The notes: generated by a model not told the origin, from the letters alone. Positions 4,124-12,746 are shown, counted from the stretch's first letter. The stretch is 16,931 bases of DNA from Bacteriovoracaceae bacterium (GCA_041586955.1 JBFGZE010000076.1:1-16931), one strand, 5' to 3'. Numbers and translations are program-made.

Positions 4124-5467
4124 ATGAGTTTATTAAGGACCGTTTTTGCTTTAACTTTTTTCACTTATTTTTCAAACTTCTTATTAATTGCTAAAGAAAA
4201 TCACTCCTTTTATTTTATCAATGGGGGAACACTTTCATCCCAAGAAGGTTATGTCATTCCCAAAAATACATATGCACAAATAATGAAGGAAAACTCATGG
4301 TCTGTCACCATTATGGTGTTCAATCAAAAGGGGATCCTCTTAAATAACGGAAGGCCCATAACAATTAGTAAAAAATGGTTCTATAAAGCAAGCACCGACT
4401 TGAGCTTAGAGCATTTTGTCAACCTATTGGCCGAAGGCCTTAATATTGAATCCATTCAACAAAAATACTGTCAAGAATCGGCCAAGCAATTAGGGCCTTT
4501 AAAAAAAGAAGAAATTAAAGCTGGGCCCTTACCCGAAAATAATATGTGGACTTTCTTAACAAAAAATCCAAACGAGTTGGAAAACTTTTATTCTTGTTAC
4601 CAAAAAGATAGATCCGCCCTGAGAGATTATTCTTTATACTTTAGACCAAGTATTACTGAAATCTCAGAGCAATATGCCAAATCATCTGAGGGAATTAACA
4701 GCGAACAAGTTAATGCCATTCTAGGGTGCCTACTTTATCGTGAATCTTCTCATTGGAAAGGAAAAGAGTCACATTCTGGAGCAGTTGGGATTGGACAATT
4801 TACAGGAACTGCTATTAATCGTGTAAAATCGATCCTCACCTTTAAGAGTAAAGATACGTTCCAAGCTCGCCTTGATAGTAGGTATAAAAAGCTAAGGGAA
4901 AAAAAATTATCCGCAACAAAAAGGCGTCAACTCCAGCGAGATATCAATATTATTAATGCAGAAAAAGCACGCTATATGCGTTTTAAAAAGCTTCAACAAT
5001 ATTGGAAACAATTAAACTTAAAAAAGAGACCGGCCGCTAGAAAGCTCAATCATACGTACTTTGCTGATAAAAACAATCACCAGTCAATTATTGCCATGTC
5101 CTCTCTCCTCTTGCTGGACTGTCAAATAGGATTTGAGCAGGCCGAAGTTAAGATGTCTCCCAAAACAGCGCTTTTGGCCTGTGCAGGGGCCTATAACATG
5201 GGGGCCCATGGATTCTTTAAAAACGCAATCAATAAGAGAACCTTAGATCAGCAAAACCTTCAATCATGGATCACTAATCTCGAGAGTTCTCACAGTCCAC
5301 AAAAAAAGGAAACAATCGGGCACCTCATATCTATTCATCGTTGCTCGCAAAAGGAGTCCAATTTTCCACCATGCGGAACAAACCATCATTATTGTAAAAA
5401 TTTACCTTTGACAAATCCTTGTCAATCCCCTGATAGCCTTAAATGCCCTAGGGAGAAATGCCAATGA
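4124..5467 (+). CDS. Secreted lytic transglycosylase-like (SLT/lysozyme-fold) protein
   Basis: N-terminal signal-like hydrophobic segment; SLT motif I (LLYRES, putative catalytic E207), motif II (SGAVGIGQF) and motif III (AGAYNMG); Cys-rich C-terminal tail. Confidence 0.8.
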   Translation: MSLLRTVFALTFFTYFSNFLLIAKENHSFYFINGGTLSSQEGYVIPKNTYAQIMKENSWSVTIMVFNQKGILLNNGRPITISKKWFYKASTDLSLEHFVNLLAEGLNIESIQQKYCQESAKQLGPLKKEEIKAGPLPENNMWTFLTKNPNELENFYSCYQKDRSALRDYSLYFRPSITEISEQYAKSSEGINSEQVNAILGCLLYRESSHWKGKESHSGAVGIGQFTGTAINRVKSILTFKSKDTFQARLDSRYKKLREKKLSATKRRQLQRDINIINAEKARYMRFKKLQQYWKQLNLKKRPAARKLNHTYFADKNNHQSIIAMSSLLLLDCQIGFEQAEVKMSPKTALLACAGAYNMGAHGFFKNAINKRTLDQQNLQSWITNLESSHSPQKKETIGHLISIHRCSQKESNFPPCGTNHHYCKNLPLTNPCQSPDSLKCPREKCQ

Positions 5468-5853
5468 AATACCTTCTCATAATCATTTTTTTAACACCTT
5501 CCCTCCACGCATTCAATTTCCAAGAATCCCCGCTCAAGTTAAGTCAATTGGAGACAGTTGAAATTAAGCTCGAGGAGTATCTTAAAAGAAAAGGTAAGAA
5601 TCAGATCGAAGCACAAGGAAAGAGCAACAACTGGGACCTAGAAACCCATTACCTAACGCTTTTATTCCCCTATCTATTGCCGGAGTCATTTCCAGGAAAA
5701 AATCTTTATATGGAATGCTATCTCGACTTAAAATCCTATACTGATAGTAAAAAGTCCTACGATTATCGGAAATGGAATAATTGTATTCAATACAAAAATG
5801 GCAATAGGCCCCATGCAATCACAAAAAAAATTCTCAAGGAATTAGCCCCCTAG
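5464..5853 (+). CDS. Small secreted hypothetical protein
   Basis: ATG at 5464 overlaps the upstream stop as ATGA, with GGGAG at 5451-5455. Signal peptide MKYLLIIIFLTPSLHA; two Cys. The ORF-track start at 5458 is less likely. Confidence 0.75.
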   Translation: MKYLLIIIFLTPSLHAFNFQESPLKLSQLETVEIKLEEYLKRKGKNQIEAQGKSNNWDLETHYLTLLFPYLLPESFPGKNLYMECYLDLKSYTDSKKSYDYRKWNNCIQYKNGNRPHAITKKILKELAP

Positions 5854-5907
5854 CCTATCGGCGAGCCGCATCATGACCTTCCTAATACTTCCACATCGGG
5901 GAGAATA

Positions 5908-7335
5908 TTAACGAGCTGGTGAAAACCAGACATCCCAAACGATTCCATCTTTCTTTTTGCCATTTTGAATGAAGGAGAATGTTCCCTTTTCTCGCACTTC
6001 TGCTCGATGAGAAAACTCAATATGGGCTTTTTGGTAATAAAGACTGATGGCCGAAACTCCCTTTTTCTTCAAGGGCGTCAATTCATTTTTAGAAGATTCA
6101 CCATCACCATTAATATCACGCCACAATAATAACTGAGAATAAACTTTATCTTTTTGATCGATACGATAATCAGCATTATGATCGTGATCTTTTAAACTCT
6201 CGAAGCCATTATCAAAACCATTACCATCTCCAAATAACTCTTTCGCCGATGAAATCCGGCCATCACCATCACGGTCAAGTGCCAATAGATAACCAGGAGC
6301 GCCTTTTTCTACCCAATGTACCACTGCCGCATCAGTGTAAAGAGGAAAGGAGCTACGTCCGCTAAAATTGGGTCTATTCGCATCAAAGAAAAGCATTAAA
6401 GGAGAATAATATGAACCACAAAAACGGTTCATCCCCAAAAAGGAGGGCTTAATATGAAGACATTGCTCAAATTCATTCAACGACTTTTCAATTTTATGAG
6501 TTAATTCGCGAGGCAAACCTTTTGAGTCATTTTGGTAGAAGAGAGTATTAACCAAAGAAGGTTTACCACTCACGAGATACTCTCCAGTCGTCAAATCCCG
6601 AGAAACTGTTCGTTTTTTAATATTCGCCCCGTTGAGTTCAACGATGATCTCTCCGCGTTTTCCATATTTATCTATCCGGCCAATTGACTTGCTAGATGTG
6701 ACTTTAATTTTATTAGAAAAATTTTCAAAACGATCCCTTAAACCACAATTAGCTGTGCCTATTTTTTTCTTATAAGATTTAACAGCGGCATAACCGGTTC
6801 CTGACCAATTATAAAAGAAAAGACAGCTAATCTTCTTGTTAAGCTCACCTTGTTTAGCAAGGTCCATCTCGCGGGTACATGATAGAGTATCATCGAGGAA
6901 CCACTTCGCCCTATTATAAGAACATTTATAGTTCACACTTTTTCCTTCAATTAAACAAGAAACCTTTTCACCACCACCAGTTACCCAAGTACAGCTTTGA
7001 CCATAGTTTTCAGGCCAAACGGATTTGATAGGAAAGGAAATATCGGCGTCAAAGACTTCTCCTTCATTTCGAATTTTCAGAGACATTTTGACATCATCGC
7101 CTTGAGGGTTAAGCGCAATACCGCCACCACGCATATTCGCTCCATAACAAGATGGTCTAATGATCACTTTTAAATACTTGGGATCGGTGCCATCACATCC
7201 TTTCTTTTTATAAACATTACCCAATTGTTTAACATACTCGTTTGGCGCATTTTGAGGGATAATAGAAAATTGCTGCCCGTAGCCAAAACCTGTCAACAAC
7301 GTGGTAAAAGATATTATGATAAATTTAGACCGCAT
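5908..7335 (-). CDS. Secreted Cys-rich protein with C-terminal EF-hand-like Ca2+-binding domain resembling the FrpC self-processing module
   Basis: AGGAG SD; signal peptide MRSKFIIISFTTLLTGFGYG; 10 Cys in the N-terminal ~310 aa; loops DRDGDGRISSAKE, DHNADYRIDQKD and DINGDGESSKNE; motifs PLML, LLALD, ELFGD, NGFESL, LLLWRD and GVSAISL. Confidence 0.8.
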   Translation of the reverse strand: MRSKFIIISFTTLLTGFGYGQQFSIIPQNAPNEYVKQLGNVYKKKGCDGTDPKYLKVIIRPSCYGANMRGGGIALNPQGDDVKMSLKIRNEGEVFDADISFPIKSVWPENYGQSCTWVTGGGEKVSCLIEGKSVNYKCSYNRAKWFLDDTLSCTREMDLAKQGELNKKISCLFFYNWSGTGYAAVKSYKKKIGTANCGLRDRFENFSNKIKVTSSKSIGRIDKYGKRGEIIVELNGANIKKRTVSRDLTTGEYLVSGKPSLVNTLFYQNDSKGLPRELTHKIEKSLNEFEQCLHIKPSFLGMNRFCGSYYSPLMLFFDANRPNFSGRSSFPLYTDAAVVHWVEKGAPGYLLALDRDGDGRISSAKELFGDGNGFDNGFESLKDHDHNADYRIDQKDKVYSQLLLWRDINGDGESSKNELTPLKKKGVSAISLYYQKAHIEFSHRAEVREKGTFSFIQNGKKKDGIVWDVWFSPAR

Positions 7336-7356
7336 AATCTTCTCCTGACTTGCTTA

Positions 7357-8337
7357 TCAAGGATTAACTTCTTTCTTTTTATTATCATCTCGATTAAATT
7401 CAACACTGATTGATGGCGAATCAATTGTTTCTCTATAAAAGCTAACCATATTGATATTATGTCCTACAATTTGTGACTTCCATTCTCCAGTTGGCAACTT
7501 TACTTCCCGTAATAATTTCCCAACGAGTACACCATTCTCTTTGATTGTTTGTATTTTATAACGCACAATTTTAACCGCTGAGATAAAGACAAAGTTGCCC
7601 AGCCCCTCGACATAAGGGGCCCTACGCAGCATTTTATCTGATGATGTGATTCTTGTTTTATCGCGTGGATCAATACTAATAAATTGCTTGTCCACATCCT
7701 CTGGGATTAATTTCCCCAAATGCTGATCGCGAGGGACCCACCCCATATAGGCAATTTTGTGGGGCGCCGAACTCCCGTCAGTAAAGTCCTTCACCCGGAT
7801 AGTACGACTAGCATAGAGATAAACTAATTTATTTTTTCTCCATGGTGAATTATATCTTTTTTCAAAAAAGTTCCCATGATTAAGGGATTTAAACTCCAAG
7901 GAATTTTTTGAATAAGCATCGACGGGGTTATACATCAATTCCTCTCCATTCACACCATCAGAAACGATAAAGGAAATGGTCTTACTATAGGCGCCCTCAA
8001 CCGATTCTCGGTACAGATTAAATTCTCTTTTACAATTGGTCACACAGGAAATATCCGAGGTAAAATCAAAAAAATTACGATTCATATCATCTGGTAATGA
8101 AAGGCTATTCAAAGAATGTTTCGCATGAAGAATATCCTCTTTTATTATTTGTTCCGTATAAAGATTATCTAAAGTTTCAATCATATTATCGCGACTGAGG
8201 GATACATCTTTTCTAACAATATCAAAAATTGCTCCACCGGCCATGAAGAGTAGGCCAACCATTGAAGCGGCAACCAACATTTCCACCATCGTAAAACCAT
8301 AATCATTTATTATTTCTTTTGGTTTCATTATTTTCAT
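7357..8337 (-). CDS. Type IV minor pilin/pseudopilin, PilW/GspJ-like (~326 aa)
   Basis: Class III signal peptide G|FTMVEMLVAASMVGLLFMAG with Glu at +5. ATG at 8337 lies 1 nt after the upstream stop; 8349 and 8328 are alternative starts. The PilW-like call rests on size and context. Confidence 0.8.
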   Translation of the reverse strand: MKIMKPKEIINDYGFTMVEMLVAASMVGLLFMAGGAIFDIVRKDVSLSRDNMIETLDNLYTEQIIKEDILHAKHSLNSLSLPDDMNRNFFDFTSDISCVTNCKREFNLYRESVEGAYSKTISFIVSDGVNGEELMYNPVDAYSKNSLEFKSLNHGNFFEKRYNSPWRKNKLVYLYASRTIRVKDFTDGSSAPHKIAYMGWVPRDQHLGKLIPEDVDKQFISIDPRDKTRITSSDKMLRRAPYVEGLGNFVFISAVKIVRYKIQTIKENGVLVGKLLREVKLPTGEWKSQIVGHNINMVSFYRETIDSPSISVEFNRDDNKKKEVNP

Positions 8338-8338
8338 A

Positions 8339-8794
8339 TCATTGACCATTAACCAAGAAGGTGTACTCTTTAAAGGTTTCAATATAACGTGCATGAGTTA
8401 CTTTAATCGTTAACTTATAAAGTCCTCTATAGGTTGTCAGAGGCTCAATAACAAAACCCATACGACCTTCACAAGCTGGGCATTGATCTACGTCAGTTAA
8501 TGTTTTTTCATCCCAGGCCAAAGGCAATTCCTTCATCAACTGGGCCTTAGAAGTCATACTTAAAAACACGCCAGCATTATAATCGACTTGATAAAGAGCA
8601 ACATTATTCTGAATATTGCGGGAAAGTGATAATGCTGCTCTTTCCACACTTAGCTTATTTTCCACATCATTAGAGAAGCGGTTTAGATACTTTGACCCCC
8701 CAATAAGCCCGGTTGCGACAATACCAATAATGGCGAATCCAACCAGCACTTCGACCAGGGTGAACCCATATTCGTTTTGTTTTAAACTTCTCAT
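8339..8794 (-). CDS. Type IV minor pilin, PilV/GspI-like (~151 aa)
   Basis: Class III signal peptide G|FTLVEVLVGFAIIGIVATGLI; ATG at 8794 forms an ATGA overlap with the upstream stop; C-terminal GLYKLTIKVT strand as in PilV/GspI-like proteins. Confidence 0.85.
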   Translation of the reverse strand: MRSLKQNEYGFTLVEVLVGFAIIGIVATGLIGGSKYLNRFSNDVENKLSVERAALSLSRNIQNNVALYQVDYNAGVFLSMTSKAQLMKELPLAWDEKTLTDVDQCPACEGRMGFVIEPLTTYRGLYKLTIKVTHARYIETFKEYTFLVNGQ

Positions 8795-11790
8795 AATGTT
8801 CCCGTCTTTACCCAAATCACTTTGCTCGAAAAGCGTCTATAGCGATTCGGTATTTTTGACCTGGTTGTCACTGCCGATCCCGTTGAAGGAATACCGATTT
8901 CAGGGTCGACTGTTGTCCAATTAAAATTATTGGAGCCGTGAATTACGAATTTCATCGGACTACATGATAAATAATCCGCTTGAACATTATTATTAAGAAA
9001 TGGAGACCAACCTGGCTCATCATCACTAAACTCACATTGGTCTTTTCCCATGGGTCGGCTTTCACGTCTTAAGTGCTTTTTTTCTCGCAAAAGACGAATG
9101 GCATGAGGGTGCCATATACTATAAAAATTGACTCCACTATTTCTTGCGTTCGGAGCAATCGTGAGTTTTTGTAAAATGATAGTTCCAATTATATTAAGCT
9201 CAGAGCGACGAGACTCAATAATCAATTCCTGACATACATAATTTCCAAAAACGAAATCAATATTATTTGGAACAATACACTTTTCAACAATCGATTTTGT
9301 CGGTACCCCGTTATAGAGGTAGGGGTCCATATCTTTTTCATCGAAAGTATGCATCGGAACAGGTTCAACTAATTTAGGGTCTTCAATTGTTACACCTGAG
9401 TGAGTCACGCTATAAAGCCAAGAAAATTTTGTATTTTTTGTAAAGGAAACATCCCATTCCGAAGAAGGTACCCCGTAAAAACCTTTACATTGCTCATCGA
9501 CCTCTTTGGCCCTGGCCGTTGTTATTCCATCTATCGGATAAAGGGTTCCCTTATAACTCCCATTCCAAACTTGTGGAGGCTCATTGCGTTTTGAATCATC
9601 CTTTCGAAGGAGAGCATAAGGTAGACCTTGGATTTTTTTATCAATCTCCTCACTATCGAGAGTGCGAAACTCTCTACGGGCAATATCATAATATATTTGA
9701 TTATATCGGCCATACTCCCACTTTCTTCTATTTGGGCCAGGTAAATGGTCCCAATCAGTTCGCTTACCGGTGCGATAATTATTAGTATTTTCAACAGCAA
9801 AATCAAATGCTACAAAATCCAGGTAAATTCTATTCACAACATTATTTAATAATTTATTATTTAAACTGGATTCATTTTTCATGTGCAATTTAAAATCTAG
9901 TTTATTGGCTAATTTATCCTGAGTCTTCATAACGATAGCTGGTGTAGCATCGACCAATTCCCCAACATCCCTAACCAGATCATCTTGACTTGCTTTAAAT
10001 AACTTCCATTCATTATCAACCATTGACACCGTATTCTCACAACGTGTATCTGTTTTCTCCACTGTTTTTGGTATTTCAACAAAAACTTCGACTTCTTGCT
10101 CGATCTCATTGCCATCTTTATCAATGACTTTAACAATTTCTTTTTTCTTTTCCTTACTCGTCTCTTCTACTCCATATTGGCAATTTGAAACCCCTGTTTG
10201 AGAAAAAGAATCAATCACCTTACGACAAGCTTCATGGTAATATTCGGCCGTCGTGGTTTTTCGCTCCCCCTCCGTAATCATATTTTCGCAATGTCTCTTT
10301 AGCTCATTGTAATGTTTTTCAAAGAGGTAAGGGTCTTTTAGGGCATCAAAGTCAATCTTTTCTTTATCCAGGTAAGATGAATCATCAATATCGACATCTT
10401 CTTTTATTTTTTTAAAGAATGAGACATCAGCAAGCGCAATTTCAAGTTCAGTGTTTCGCCCCATTAATAATTCATTATTGACATTTTTTCTGTCATTTAT
10501 TCCCACATCAATCTTCATAACAGGAGGGACATGTAAGTTATAAGGTGCATAGTGAACATCTAAACGGGCCAGGTATTCCTTATTCCCCTCTTCTTTGACG
10601 ACTCGGATTGCATCTTTATCCTCTTCCCAAAAATTTAAAATTTCTCTAAATTCATTTTTTGCAGAAAGCGCCAATTCATAATCGCCATTAGAGCCTTTTA
10701 TAAAGAGCCGAGAGTCTCTCGTAAGAAAAGGGTTCTCCATCATTTTACGACGGACAATACATATATCCATTAATGAATTTTTTGGATATTTATAACCCTG
10801 GCCAAAGAGGGGTGCCAAGCCTTTATCAAGTTCGGCCTCTAAAGTCACACCACCATTAAACCCATTAAAGGTTGTTAGTTGCCCATTTAATTGATTTGAT
10901 TGACCACCATAGCTCCTAGGGGAAAATAATTTCCCTTCAGATATAATATTTCCACTCCCGATGCGAACATCATCATAAAAACCAACGGGATAGAATCCTT
11001 TTGCCGGAACATAGACATCATTTTCGACATAAGTTTTGCCGAAAAACTTTACACCTTTACTTGCCGGGCTTCCAGTGAAGTTGGCAATATTAAGGTCTCC
11101 CGCTTTGATCACCGCAAATTGATTAAGAGTGCGCGGAAAAAAAGTCACCTCACTTTCTAGCGCAGGATCACCAACAAAATCACCACATCCACTGGTTGTT
11201 AGTTTTTTCATTTTTCCTGTTATCTTAATAAATAAACTTTTTTCATCACCCTTAGGTAAATTTCCTGACACCAGATATCTTCCAATCTTGACGGTAAAGG
11301 AATCCATGCAACGCTTTATTTTGGGAGTTAAAATAAGGTTTAAGGGGTGATTAACTCCAAGTACGGCCAGCGATGAGATGGGTACTTTCTTTTCTATTTT
11401 CATCAATTGCGGAGACCGGTGAATATCTACTTTATAGGTATTTTTATAACTTTCAGCAATTGCATCGGCAGCAACATTGGACCATAATAATCGTTCTAAA
11501 TTAAGGGGATTCAATACCACTTGTTTCATTTCTGTGCCGCCACAGGATTTATCTCTGCCCCAGCTATTATCCATACACCAACGTTCTTTAAGAGCATAAA
11601 CGGTGTAATTTAAAACCCCACGGGTAAATTTCTCCGCCGAATAATTCATATGATAATTTTTTCTTTTACCAGAGAGAGCGTCAACAATGGTATTCATATT
11701 AGTAACAAGAAACACCGACGCCCCTGCGGCCGCAAGAATAGTAAATAGCGAGGCACTCCCCTTTTGTGACTTTATCAAATTAACCAACAT
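8791..11790 (-). CDS. Giant PilX/GspK/ComZ-like pilin-family protein (~999 aa)
   Basis: AAAGGA SD before ATG 11790. N-terminus MLVNLIKSQKG|SASLFTILAAAGASVFLV is a basic leader, Gly and a hydrophobic helix lacking Glu+5, as in PilX/GspK. First gene of an operon with two canonical prepilins. Confidence 0.7.
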   Translation of the reverse strand: MLVNLIKSQKGSASLFTILAAAGASVFLVTNMNTIVDALSGKRKNYHMNYSAEKFTRGVLNYTVYALKERWCMDNSWGRDKSCGGTEMKQVVLNPLNLERLLWSNVAADAIAESYKNTYKVDIHRSPQLMKIEKKVPISSLAVLGVNHPLNLILTPKIKRCMDSFTVKIGRYLVSGNLPKGDEKSLFIKITGKMKKLTTSGCGDFVGDPALESEVTFFPRTLNQFAVIKAGDLNIANFTGSPASKGVKFFGKTYVENDVYVPAKGFYPVGFYDDVRIGSGNIISEGKLFSPRSYGGQSNQLNGQLTTFNGFNGGVTLEAELDKGLAPLFGQGYKYPKNSLMDICIVRRKMMENPFLTRDSRLFIKGSNGDYELALSAKNEFREILNFWEEDKDAIRVVKEEGNKEYLARLDVHYAPYNLHVPPVMKIDVGINDRKNVNNELLMGRNTELEIALADVSFFKKIKEDVDIDDSSYLDKEKIDFDALKDPYLFEKHYNELKRHCENMITEGERKTTTAEYYHEACRKVIDSFSQTGVSNCQYGVEETSKEKKKEIVKVIDKDGNEIEQEVEVFVEIPKTVEKTDTRCENTVSMVDNEWKLFKASQDDLVRDVGELVDATPAIVMKTQDKLANKLDFKLHMKNESSLNNKLLNNVVNRIYLDFVAFDFAVENTNNYRTGKRTDWDHLPGPNRRKWEYGRYNQIYYDIARREFRTLDSEEIDKKIQGLPYALLRKDDSKRNEPPQVWNGSYKGTLYPIDGITTARAKEVDEQCKGFYGVPSSEWDVSFTKNTKFSWLYSVTHSGVTIEDPKLVEPVPMHTFDEKDMDPYLYNGVPTKSIVEKCIVPNNIDFVFGNYVCQELIIESRRSELNIIGTIILQKLTIAPNARNSGVNFYSIWHPHAIRLLREKKHLRRESRPMGKDQCEFSDDEPGWSPFLNNNVQADYLSCSPMKFVIHGSNNFNWTTVDPEIGIPSTGSAVTTRSKIPNRYRRFSSKVIWVKTGTL

Positions 11791-12171
11791 CAAATACTGT
11801 CCTTTACAGAGTCCAATCAATTTCCCGTTCTCAACAACGAAACTGTATTCATGGATTCTTTTATTTTCTCATAGTTATATCGTTTTAGAATTTAGGCGCA
11901 GACTTTTCCCGTCCAGCTTTCTTAACGATTCCCATTATTTTAGTAAGTTATTTGGCTCTATGGATGAGTTACTCGCGCCAAGCCGATAAGAAGTAATCGA
12001 CAGATAAATATGGCATAATCAATTTAACAACGACCCTGTTTTTTGACATTTACGGCCCTGCCCATCAAAAAAGGCATCGCTTCACGATTTATTTTACTTT
12101 AACAGTCTGATTTTTATCGAATTGTTCATTTTTATTTTCTTGAAAGTGGCCTATGCCACATAATAAATTCC

Positions 12172-12558
12172 ATGATCGCGACACAACTTAACCTTAGGCA
12201 TTCCATCGTTAATGTATTCGGATACTTCCTCATTGGTGCATTCTTATGGCCTTACCATAATGCACTGTGGGCCTTCGCTCTCTTGATACTCCTGCTAATA
12301 TATCATTATTTTTATTTTCAAATAAGCTTTTCACAACGAGGAATAGGGCTCAATCGCTTTGTTTTCCTCAATTGGCAGCAATTGAATAAGATCCAAGTGG
12401 AGCGATATATTTTAGACAAGGCCTATCTAAGTATTCACCACCAAAAGGGTAAGATTTTCAAATTCAGCCTAACAACGGGGCAAATCCAGGAGTTCTCCCA
12501 ATTAGTGCAACAATATTCTGAACTCGATGTTGTTTATTTGCACGAATTAGGGGTTTAA
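12172..12558 (+). CDS. Small membrane protein (2 TM helices plus short soluble beta-rich, possibly PH-like, domain)
   Basis: 128-aa ORF with two hydrophobic helices followed by ISFSQRGI...FLNWQQLNKIQV, reminiscent of bacterial PH-like domains. Confidence 0.65.
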   Translation: MIATQLNLRHSIVNVFGYFLIGAFLWPYHNALWAFALLILLLIYHYFYFQISFSQRGIGLNRFVFLNWQQLNKIQVERYILDKAYLSIHHQKGKIFKFSLTTGQIQEFSQLVQQYSELDVVYLHELGV

Positions 12559-12746
12559 ACAAATCATGATATTTTTATCGTTTTATTGAATTCATTAAAA
12601 TCAAAGGGATAGGTGTGTAACAACCCGCTCATTCAATAAAATCACCTTCCCTTTAAAAAATACACTAAATTTTATTTACACGAGTCAGGTATTTATGTTA
12701 CATAGGAGCCCACTTATCAAATTGTCGGTGTCTTTAAGGAGTTGTT

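Follow-up and report, generated by a model that had tools for sequence, protein, structure and literature searches.

The minus strand of a 16,931-nucleotide contig from a Bacteriovoracaceae bacterium (GCA_041586955.1, JBFGZE010000076.1:1-16931; the source contig in its entirety, here called the window) carries four adjoining genes, g1 to g4, between positions 5908 and 11790. Our analysis shows that these genes are a conserved gene module of the Bdellovibrionota, whose linkage has been kept despite changes in gene order. The first three genes specify pilin-like proteins, one of them of giant size, and the fourth a secreted protein that ends in a Ca2+-binding domain like the self-processing module (SPM) found in FrpC from Neisseria meningitidis. 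We propose that the four products probably make up an accessory complex at the tip of a type IV filament (a priming complex), in which g4 would take the place of PilY1; the type IVa pilus (T4aP) is the most likely filament. The assembly of which the window is part comprises 3.46 Mb in 194 contigs and is 88% complete, and the closest protein matches of the window bear Halobacteriovorax names.

Conserved linkage across the Bdellovibrionota

An initial annotation of the window had treated the four genes as a unit and looked to gene neighbourhoods in other genomes for confirmation. Homologues of the 475-residue g4 protein are indeed linked to pilin genes elsewhere, and nearly always beside the same three pilin-like genes. 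The four genes occur together in two genomes of the same family and in one of another family; G019 keeps the order seen here, and in G015 and G036 g4 comes first. Of the 251 genomes of the phylum that were scanned, 41 contain g1 and 82 a g4-type match. To count linkage, every g1 row (60 loci) was compared with the 64 g4 rows at E<=1e-27, and the weaker g4 rows, mostly larger proteins that share the domain only, were dropped. On this basis a strong SPM match lies within 6 kb of 57 of the 60 g1 loci, and 57 of the 64 strong SPM matches adjoin a g1 locus. The three g1 loci without an SPM match are in assemblies of 80 to 300 contigs, and a contig break between the genes possibly explains them. Three of the seven unpaired SPM matches were examined, and each comes after a protein of 908-1134 residues and a pair of pilin-like genes that had escaped the g1 query.

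A wider scan covered one genome per species from 185,579 species and used the g4 clade alignment and its motif as query, because the 60-row g1 alignment was too diverse. It returned 78 loci. The record titles of 73 give Bacteriovorax, Halobacteriovorax, Peredibacter, Bdellovibrio or a higher Bdellovibrionota name, and those of the other five only Proteobacteria or Pseudomonadota. A g1-family gene stands beside the SPM gene in 72 of them, and the other six are cut by contig ends, with less than 2.2 kb upstream of the match. Within the 72 modules g4 comes first in five and last in the rest.

Bdellovibrio-like genomes hold two to three paralogous modules each, and a record named as a Bdellovibrio sp. 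chromosome (L109) contains two complete g1-g2-g3-g4 modules in tandem. At four further loci (L081, L085, L093 and L102) the end of one module directly precedes the next. Homologous modules are also present in the genetically tractable B. bacteriovorus, where the g4 homologues are named in their source records 'EF-hand domain-containing protein', 'hemolysin-type calcium binding protein / bacteriocin' or hypothetical. No description of the module was found in the literature searched.

The gene products

The AlphaFold2 (AF2) model of g4, based on 92 sequences (predicted local distance difference test score, pLDDT, 85.5), consists of an N-part at about residues 46-305 and a domain at 312-475. The domain matches the structure of the FrpC SPM (6sjw) with VIA Z 20.6 and a root-mean-square deviation (rmsd) of 2.6 Å over 154 aligned residues at 27% identity, model residues 312-475 pairing with chain residues 1-172; Foldseek gives E 1.2e-9 with a template modelling score to the target of 0.71, and phmmer E 6e-11. 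The SPM-like label that the initial annotation had attached to the fourth protein is therefore strongly borne out by both structure and sequence matches, and its description of the remainder also stands: the N-terminus is of Sec type, with no lipobox Cys, and DxDxDG loops can be read in the protein. The EF-hand_5 match is weak (E 0.011). All g4 homologues carry the precomputed family PF26745, of which no mention was found in the literature searched.

We mapped g4 onto FrpC by HMMER alignment to 6sjw, by the description in the available text of PMC7078468 and by column counts. The structural alignment begins at P312, which is chain residue 1 and corresponds to P415. Ca sites II-IV are retained (D354/D356/D358/E366, D385/N387/D389/D396 and D407/N409/D411/E418), as are the Trp451/Trp519 pair, in the form of W341 and W405, and the port residues L367, G369, G377 and W341; D370 takes the place of D478, and the invariant D468 probably that of D579. 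Ca site I (D419, D421, D423 and G424, with D456) is lost, PLMLFFDANR standing in place of PLALDLDGDG. As described in the available text of PMC7078468, self-processing in FrpC starts when the Asp side-chain carboxylate attacks its own carbonyl and forms an anhydride. Because g4 has Ser311 in place of the Asp414 nucleophile, it is not a canonical clip-and-link module, and we rejected that reading. With the catalytic Asp replaced by an invariant Ser, the domain is most likely a Ca2+-dependent folding and docking unit.

Among 92 members of the family the residue at the Pro312 position is always Pro, and the residue before it is Ser in 61, Asp in 24 and Thr in seven. A quick tree of the domain places 56 Ser-Pro rows on one side of a branch with SH-aLRT support of 100 and gathers the 24 Asp-Pro rows into one group with support of 95. 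Known until now from RTX toxins and as a protein-ligation tool, the self-processing fold has in these proteins a large Ser-Pro sister clade in a different setting. This raises the question whether the SPM fold can be simply a Ca2+ switch or has a second chemistry. Fold, Ca sites II-IV, Trp pair, Pro415, port residues and D478/D579 equivalents are shared with the FrpC/FrpA/ApxIVA type of module (6sjw/6sjx; available text of PMC7078468), from which g4 differs in having Ser for Asp414 and no Ca site I. In those proteins the module is an internal domain of an RTX protein secreted by a type I secretion system (T1SS), whereas in g4 it lies at the very C-terminus of a Sec-type, pilin-linked protein that has neither RTX repeats nor a T1SS context; a Pfam search of g4 at E<=1 returned no RTX repeat family.

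Conservation in g4 is concentrated at residues 51-75 and 301-475, with a variable region at about 100-300, and ten cysteines lie within the first 306 residues. The N-part matches only generic immunoglobulin (Ig)/CnaB-like domains at Z 5-6. At these scores kinship with the Ig/CnaB domains of Gram-positive pili was rejected, and the likeness was taken as that of a common beta-sandwich. An Atlas search with the N-part gave no usable match.

Proteins of 743-866 residues with lipoprotein-like N-termini and a C-terminal SPM-like domain occur in another family of the phylum (L035:9182-11413 and L015:5253-7853). They too have Ser-Pro, within C-x-K-Q-Y-S-P, but keep a site-I-like DLTGEG loop, and the one in L035 adjoins a g1-g4 module.

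The largest protein, g1, starts with MLVNLIKSQKG/SASLF (the slash marks the putative cleavage site) and continues into a hydrophobic helix; the leader is short and basic, with Gly at -1 and Phe instead of Glu at +5. Its homologues share the leader Gly, the hydrophobic alpha1 and the lack of Glu5. An in-frame TTG at 11820 offers an alternative start. In the AF2 model (21 sequences; pLDDT 73.2, predicted template modelling score 0.49) helix 17-69 is joined by a closing C-terminal strand at 987-998. The best match in the PDB is ComZ (6qvi; Foldseek E 1.1e-3; VIA Z 7.8, rmsd 12 Å over 250 residues), followed in VIA by GspK (3ci0_K, Z 7.2), S. sanguinis PilA (Z 7.1) and XcpX (5vtm_X, Z 6.0), so that the top solved matches are tip-type or ordinary pilins throughout, each of them weak.

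A full scan of 1.84 billion representatives yielded 262 relatives of g1 at E<=1e-3, whose matches typically cover the two ends, at about residues 1-430 and 760-997, and leave out the middle. Column statistics accordingly show conservation at about 41-400 and 761-999, the scaffold, and variability at about 401-760, a middle part that is often absent. Two segments, 768-808 and 953-984, have pLDDT below 50 in the monomer model yet contain invariant residues (W779, D780 and W791; N955, W958, D962 and P963), and they may fold only against a partner. In 39 family members scanned of the 150 listed, no family exceeded the Pfam cut-off, and three had sub-threshold matches only; PF14341 (PilX_N) was not found in this genome or in four relatives, and seven of 30 Atlas look-alike clusters of g1 carry PilX_N. 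For a short relative, P0156, no related loci were found in metagenome contigs.

The two smaller proteins are recognised as prepilins by profile: g2 matches N_methyl (E 3.1e-8), TIGR02532 (E 2.5e-4) and the gspI N-terminus (E 0.0012), and g3 matches N_methyl (E 0.0024) and TIGR02532 (E 5.4e-4). Thus, of the three prepilin-type N-termini described in the initial annotation, those of g2 and g3 are upheld by profile, and that of g1 is read by eye only. In family alignments of g2 and g3, Gly-1 is invariant and Glu5 at least 90% conserved; neither protein has a T2SSI profile match, and the profile matches that they do have are N-terminal. In 49 modules chosen for having two adjacent ORFs (open reading frames) after g1, the first encodes 145-172 residues (median 156) and the second 317-380 (median 337). 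The PilX-, PilV- and PilW-like names given to g1, g2 and g3 derive from size, order and N-termini, joined by the weak fold matches in the case of g1 alone, and are best read as provisional.

A tip complex and its alternatives

Which filament would such proteins serve? The genome has a locus for a type II secretion system (T2SS; contig C20) with its own G, H, I, J and K-like genes, a T4aP locus (contig C6) in which PilQPONM, PilD, PilA, PilC, PilT and PilB can be read as translated ORFs and minor pilins are absent, and a Tad-like locus (contig C72) with a different pilin type. Contig C6 also gives T2SSE, secretin and PilM_2 family matches. A reading of g1-g3 as the T2SS tip was rejected, the T2SS locus having its own set. 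PilM_2 was detected in 41/41 relatives, 24 of 24 in the same family, and among same-family genomes g1 is found in seven of 51 and the SPM protein in eight of 51. Since the module is patchy while PilM is universal, it is likely an accessory tip set and not a core primer, that is, an optional and exchangeable set. The earlier interpretation of a stand-alone alternative tip module is thus supported in part: the contrast between a patchy module and a universal T4aP machine agrees with it, and the assignment to the T4aP is tentative in view of other large pilin-like gene sets on contigs C39, C64 and C157.

In the assembly that we envisage, g2 and g3, and probably g1 as well, would be processed by PilD, and the three proteins would assemble at the inner membrane in the manner of GspI-GspJ-GspK or PilV-PilW-PilX, with the giant g1, lacking Glu5, on top. 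Once exported by Sec, the g4 protein would use its SPM-like domain, with three EF-hand-like sites, to fold in the Ca2+-rich periplasm or outside the cell, and would then join the pilin complex at the position that PilY1 holds in other bacteria. Both conserved ends of g1, together with residues 51-75 and the SPM domain of g4, could provide the docking scaffold, and the variable middles of g1 and g4 could be exposed, exchangeable surfaces for contact with prey or other surfaces.

The proposal draws on several known systems. Type IVa pili of Pseudomonas and Myxococcus have the FimU-PilV-PilW-PilX-PilY1 set, which likewise combines several minor pilins with a large, non-pilin, Ca2+-binding and Sec-exported protein. 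As in the Bdellovibrio-like genomes described here, multiple sets per genome occur in Myxococcus, where the available text of PMC13190605 describes alternative priming or tip sets. The window differs in that it has no FimU-like fourth pilin and the order is X-V-W; g4 consists of a beta-sandwich and an SPM-like domain, with no match to the PF05567 beta-propeller at E<=1 and no propeller among its fold matches, and g1 is about 1000 residues long with no PilX_N match. What g4 shares with PilY1 is context, namely minor-pilin neighbours, a Sec-type signal and predicted Ca2+ sites, and this concerns role and not family membership. The T2SS tips GspI-GspJ-GspK (3ci0) and XcpVWX (5vtm) also consist of a small, a medium and a large pilin-like protein. 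In the largest (GspK or XcpX) Glu5 is missing, as in g1, and the pilin fold carries a big insert; weak matches hint that g1 may have one too. In contrast to GspIJK, the module always comes with a fourth, non-pilin gene. In ComZ of Thermus thermophilus (6qvi; available text of PMC6561018), a large minor pilin of the tip type, the pilin fold accommodates a big inserted module. ComZ differs from g1 in its length of about 550 residues and its role in DNA uptake, and the match is weak. We know of no SPM-like partner of ComZ.

A number of results weigh against a PilY1-type tip complex built from these proteins. Neither Pfam nor NCBIfam gives a match for g1, PilX_N and T2SSK included, and its fold matches lie below the level at which chance is excluded (Z<8, Foldseek E just above 1e-3). 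Family profiles of g2 and g3 match solved pilins in the N-terminal helix only, the globular parts matching no solved GspI/J or PilV/W by sequence. Neither this genome nor five near-complete relatives with the module gave a PF05567 match, a weak negative because the positive control passed the cut-off in none of 14 control genomes. The additional pilin-like sets on C39, C64 and C157 make the filament served less certain, and the invariance of Ser311-Pro312 in g4 exceeds what a structural relic would need, leaving room for chemistry. Finally, the binding of g4 to the pilins, its place at the tip and the identity of the partner machine are inferred.

The invariance of Ser311-Pro312 invites the alternative that the Ser-Pro SPM of g4 is catalytically active with altered chemistry, for example through a Ca2+-triggered N-to-O acyl shift at Tyr310-Ser311 or cleavage of the Ser-Pro bond, so that the N-part would be cut off and perhaps transferred covalently, either to the tip of the pilus or onto the surface of the prey. 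Ser311, Pro312, Cys306 and Phe316 are each present in 33/33 members of the pilin-linked clade, at a mean column identity of 34%, and the scissile position is restricted to Asp, Ser or Thr in 92/92 family members. An aromatic residue precedes Ser311, and aromatic-Ser is a known type of self-cleaving site. The apparatus that strains the bond in FrpC (available text of PMC7078468) is retained, with D370 and probably D468 at the places of D478 and D579 and the port residues listed above. Set against this, Ser is incapable of the carboxylate anhydride chemistry of Asp (same text), and Ca site I, beside the scissile bond, has been lost, Phe316 having replaced D419 throughout the clade. No paper on cleavage by a Ser-Pro SPM was found in the literature searched, and the SPM homologues discussed in the available text of PMC12538545 are Asp-Pro only. 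We regard an active Ser-Pro site as unlikely, and as more doubtful again its fullest form, a Ca2+-triggered device that on export cuts g4 and attaches the variable adhesin domain by a covalent bond, either to the giant tip pilin or to the surface of the prey. If such a device existed, it would amount to a covalently armed, exchangeable pilus tip for predators and would explain part of the Ca2+ requirement of predation.

Two further explanations were considered. It is improbable, to our judgement, that g1-g3 are a pseudopilus-type tip and g4 no structural partner at all, being a co-regulated secreted cargo, an exoprotein or a periplasmic helper. The source names of its homologues, which refer to hemolysins, bacteriocins and EF-hands, and its ordinary Sec signal would fit such a role, and conservation of linkage by itself is no proof of binding; against this, linkage persists over deep divergence and changes in gene order, whole modules including g4 are duplicated in tandem in Bdellovibrio records (L109), the conserved SPM domain and variable remainder of g4 follow the pattern of a docking scaffold plus exposed insert, and the T2SS of this genome already has five pseudopilins of its own. 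Least probable among the explanations considered is that the module is the essential core T4aP priming set in the genomes that bear it, rather than an optional one. The T4aP locus without minor pilin genes would fit an essential set, as would the failure to find PilY1, PilX_N or another recognisable PilVWX set in the genome, whereas the distribution of PilM against that of g1 and the SPM protein in the same family, and the other pilin-like sets in the genome, speak against it, and the two to three paralogous modules of Bdellovibrio-like genomes suggest interchangeable sets.

As an accessory tip complex, the module would be of interest for predation. To our knowledge no prey-recognising component has been identified at the Bdellovibrio pilus tip. 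Type IV pili are required for prey entry by Bdellovibrio (available text of PMC3818213), and the module, lineage-wide and often multi-copy, is a concrete candidate for a prey-recognising tip. Its two largest proteins pair a conserved scaffold with a variable insert, as would be expected of exchangeable recognition surfaces.

The locus and its surroundings

Direct reading of the minus strand agrees with the initial annotation that the four genes are co-oriented and tightly packed (Table 1). The g1 stop codon (TGA, 8793-8791) and the g2 start (ATG, 8794-8792) overlap as ATGA at 8791-8794; a single base, 8338, separates the g2 stop (TGA, 8341-8339) from the g3 start (ATG at 8337); and the g3 stop (TGA, 7359-7357) is followed by a 21-nt spacer (7356-7336) with AGGAG at 7346-7342, ahead of the g4 ATG at 7335. 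As had been noted, no FimU-like gene, PilY1 (PF05567) match or assembly-machine gene was found in the window, where six other ORFs were scanned with Pfam or NCBIfam and the three largest flanking ORFs were read as translations only. A promoter and terminator scan of 5400-12700 was uninformative because the DNA is AT-rich: the 36 promoter-like sites compare with 24.3±5.2 in shuffled sequence and the four terminator-like sites with 6.5±3.4, none of the latter at a gene junction.

Table 1. Positions of the module genes and selected elements, counted from the first nucleotide of the window
Feature	Position	Strand	Description
g1	8791..11790	-	999-residue giant pilin-like protein; GspK/PilX/ComZ-style N-terminus
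g2	8339..8794	-	151-residue minor prepilin of GspI/PilV size; leader ...KQNEYG/FTLVE
g3	7357..8337	-	326-residue minor prepilin of GspJ/PilW size; leader ...IINDYG/FTMVE
g4	5908..7335	-	475-residue Sec-secreted protein; Cys-rich beta-sandwich N-part and SPM-like Ca2+-binding domain
SPM-like domain of g4 (residues 312-475)	5911..6402	-	Match to 6sjw (FrpC SPM)
Ser311-Pro312 of g4	6400..6405	-	At the scissile Asp414-Pro415 position of FrpC
AGGAG ribosome-binding site	7342..7346	-	Within the 21-nt g3-g4 spacer; read directly
g1 segments 768-808 and 953-984	about 9367-9489 and 8839-8934	-	Candidate partner-binding segments

Recent transfer of the module into this contig was considered and rejected, there being no break in GC content or skew and no mobile-element gene among the window ORF translations that were read. 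Elsewhere, the G160 module has a recombinase-like ORF (L034:9899-10915) directly upstream, and the G015 module a transposase-like ORF (L012:15320-15916) some kb away; both were identified by eye, and they hint that the module may be mobile.

Among the other pilin-like sets of the genome, contig C64 encodes a 415-residue prepilin-type protein (C64:1122-2369; L118:123-1370) whose residues 290-341 form a Peptidase_S74 domain (E 5.5e-13), the intramolecular chaperone of endosialidases, which makes it a pilin with a self-cleaving trimerisation module. A different pilin cluster in G014 (L016:4341-11425) consists of a 1059-residue protein with an N-terminal Asn-Gly repeat, followed by pilin-like genes of 560, 553 and 201 residues; the 1059-residue protein weakly matches the Ca2+ loops of g4 (E 8.5e-12).

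In the window itself, a 447-residue protein encoded on the plus strand at 4124-5467 begins with a signal-like segment and matches Phage_lysozyme2 below threshold at residues 188-298 (E 0.0012). Together with a 131-residue ORF it converges on the module, and it has no tblastn match in loci L011-L016.

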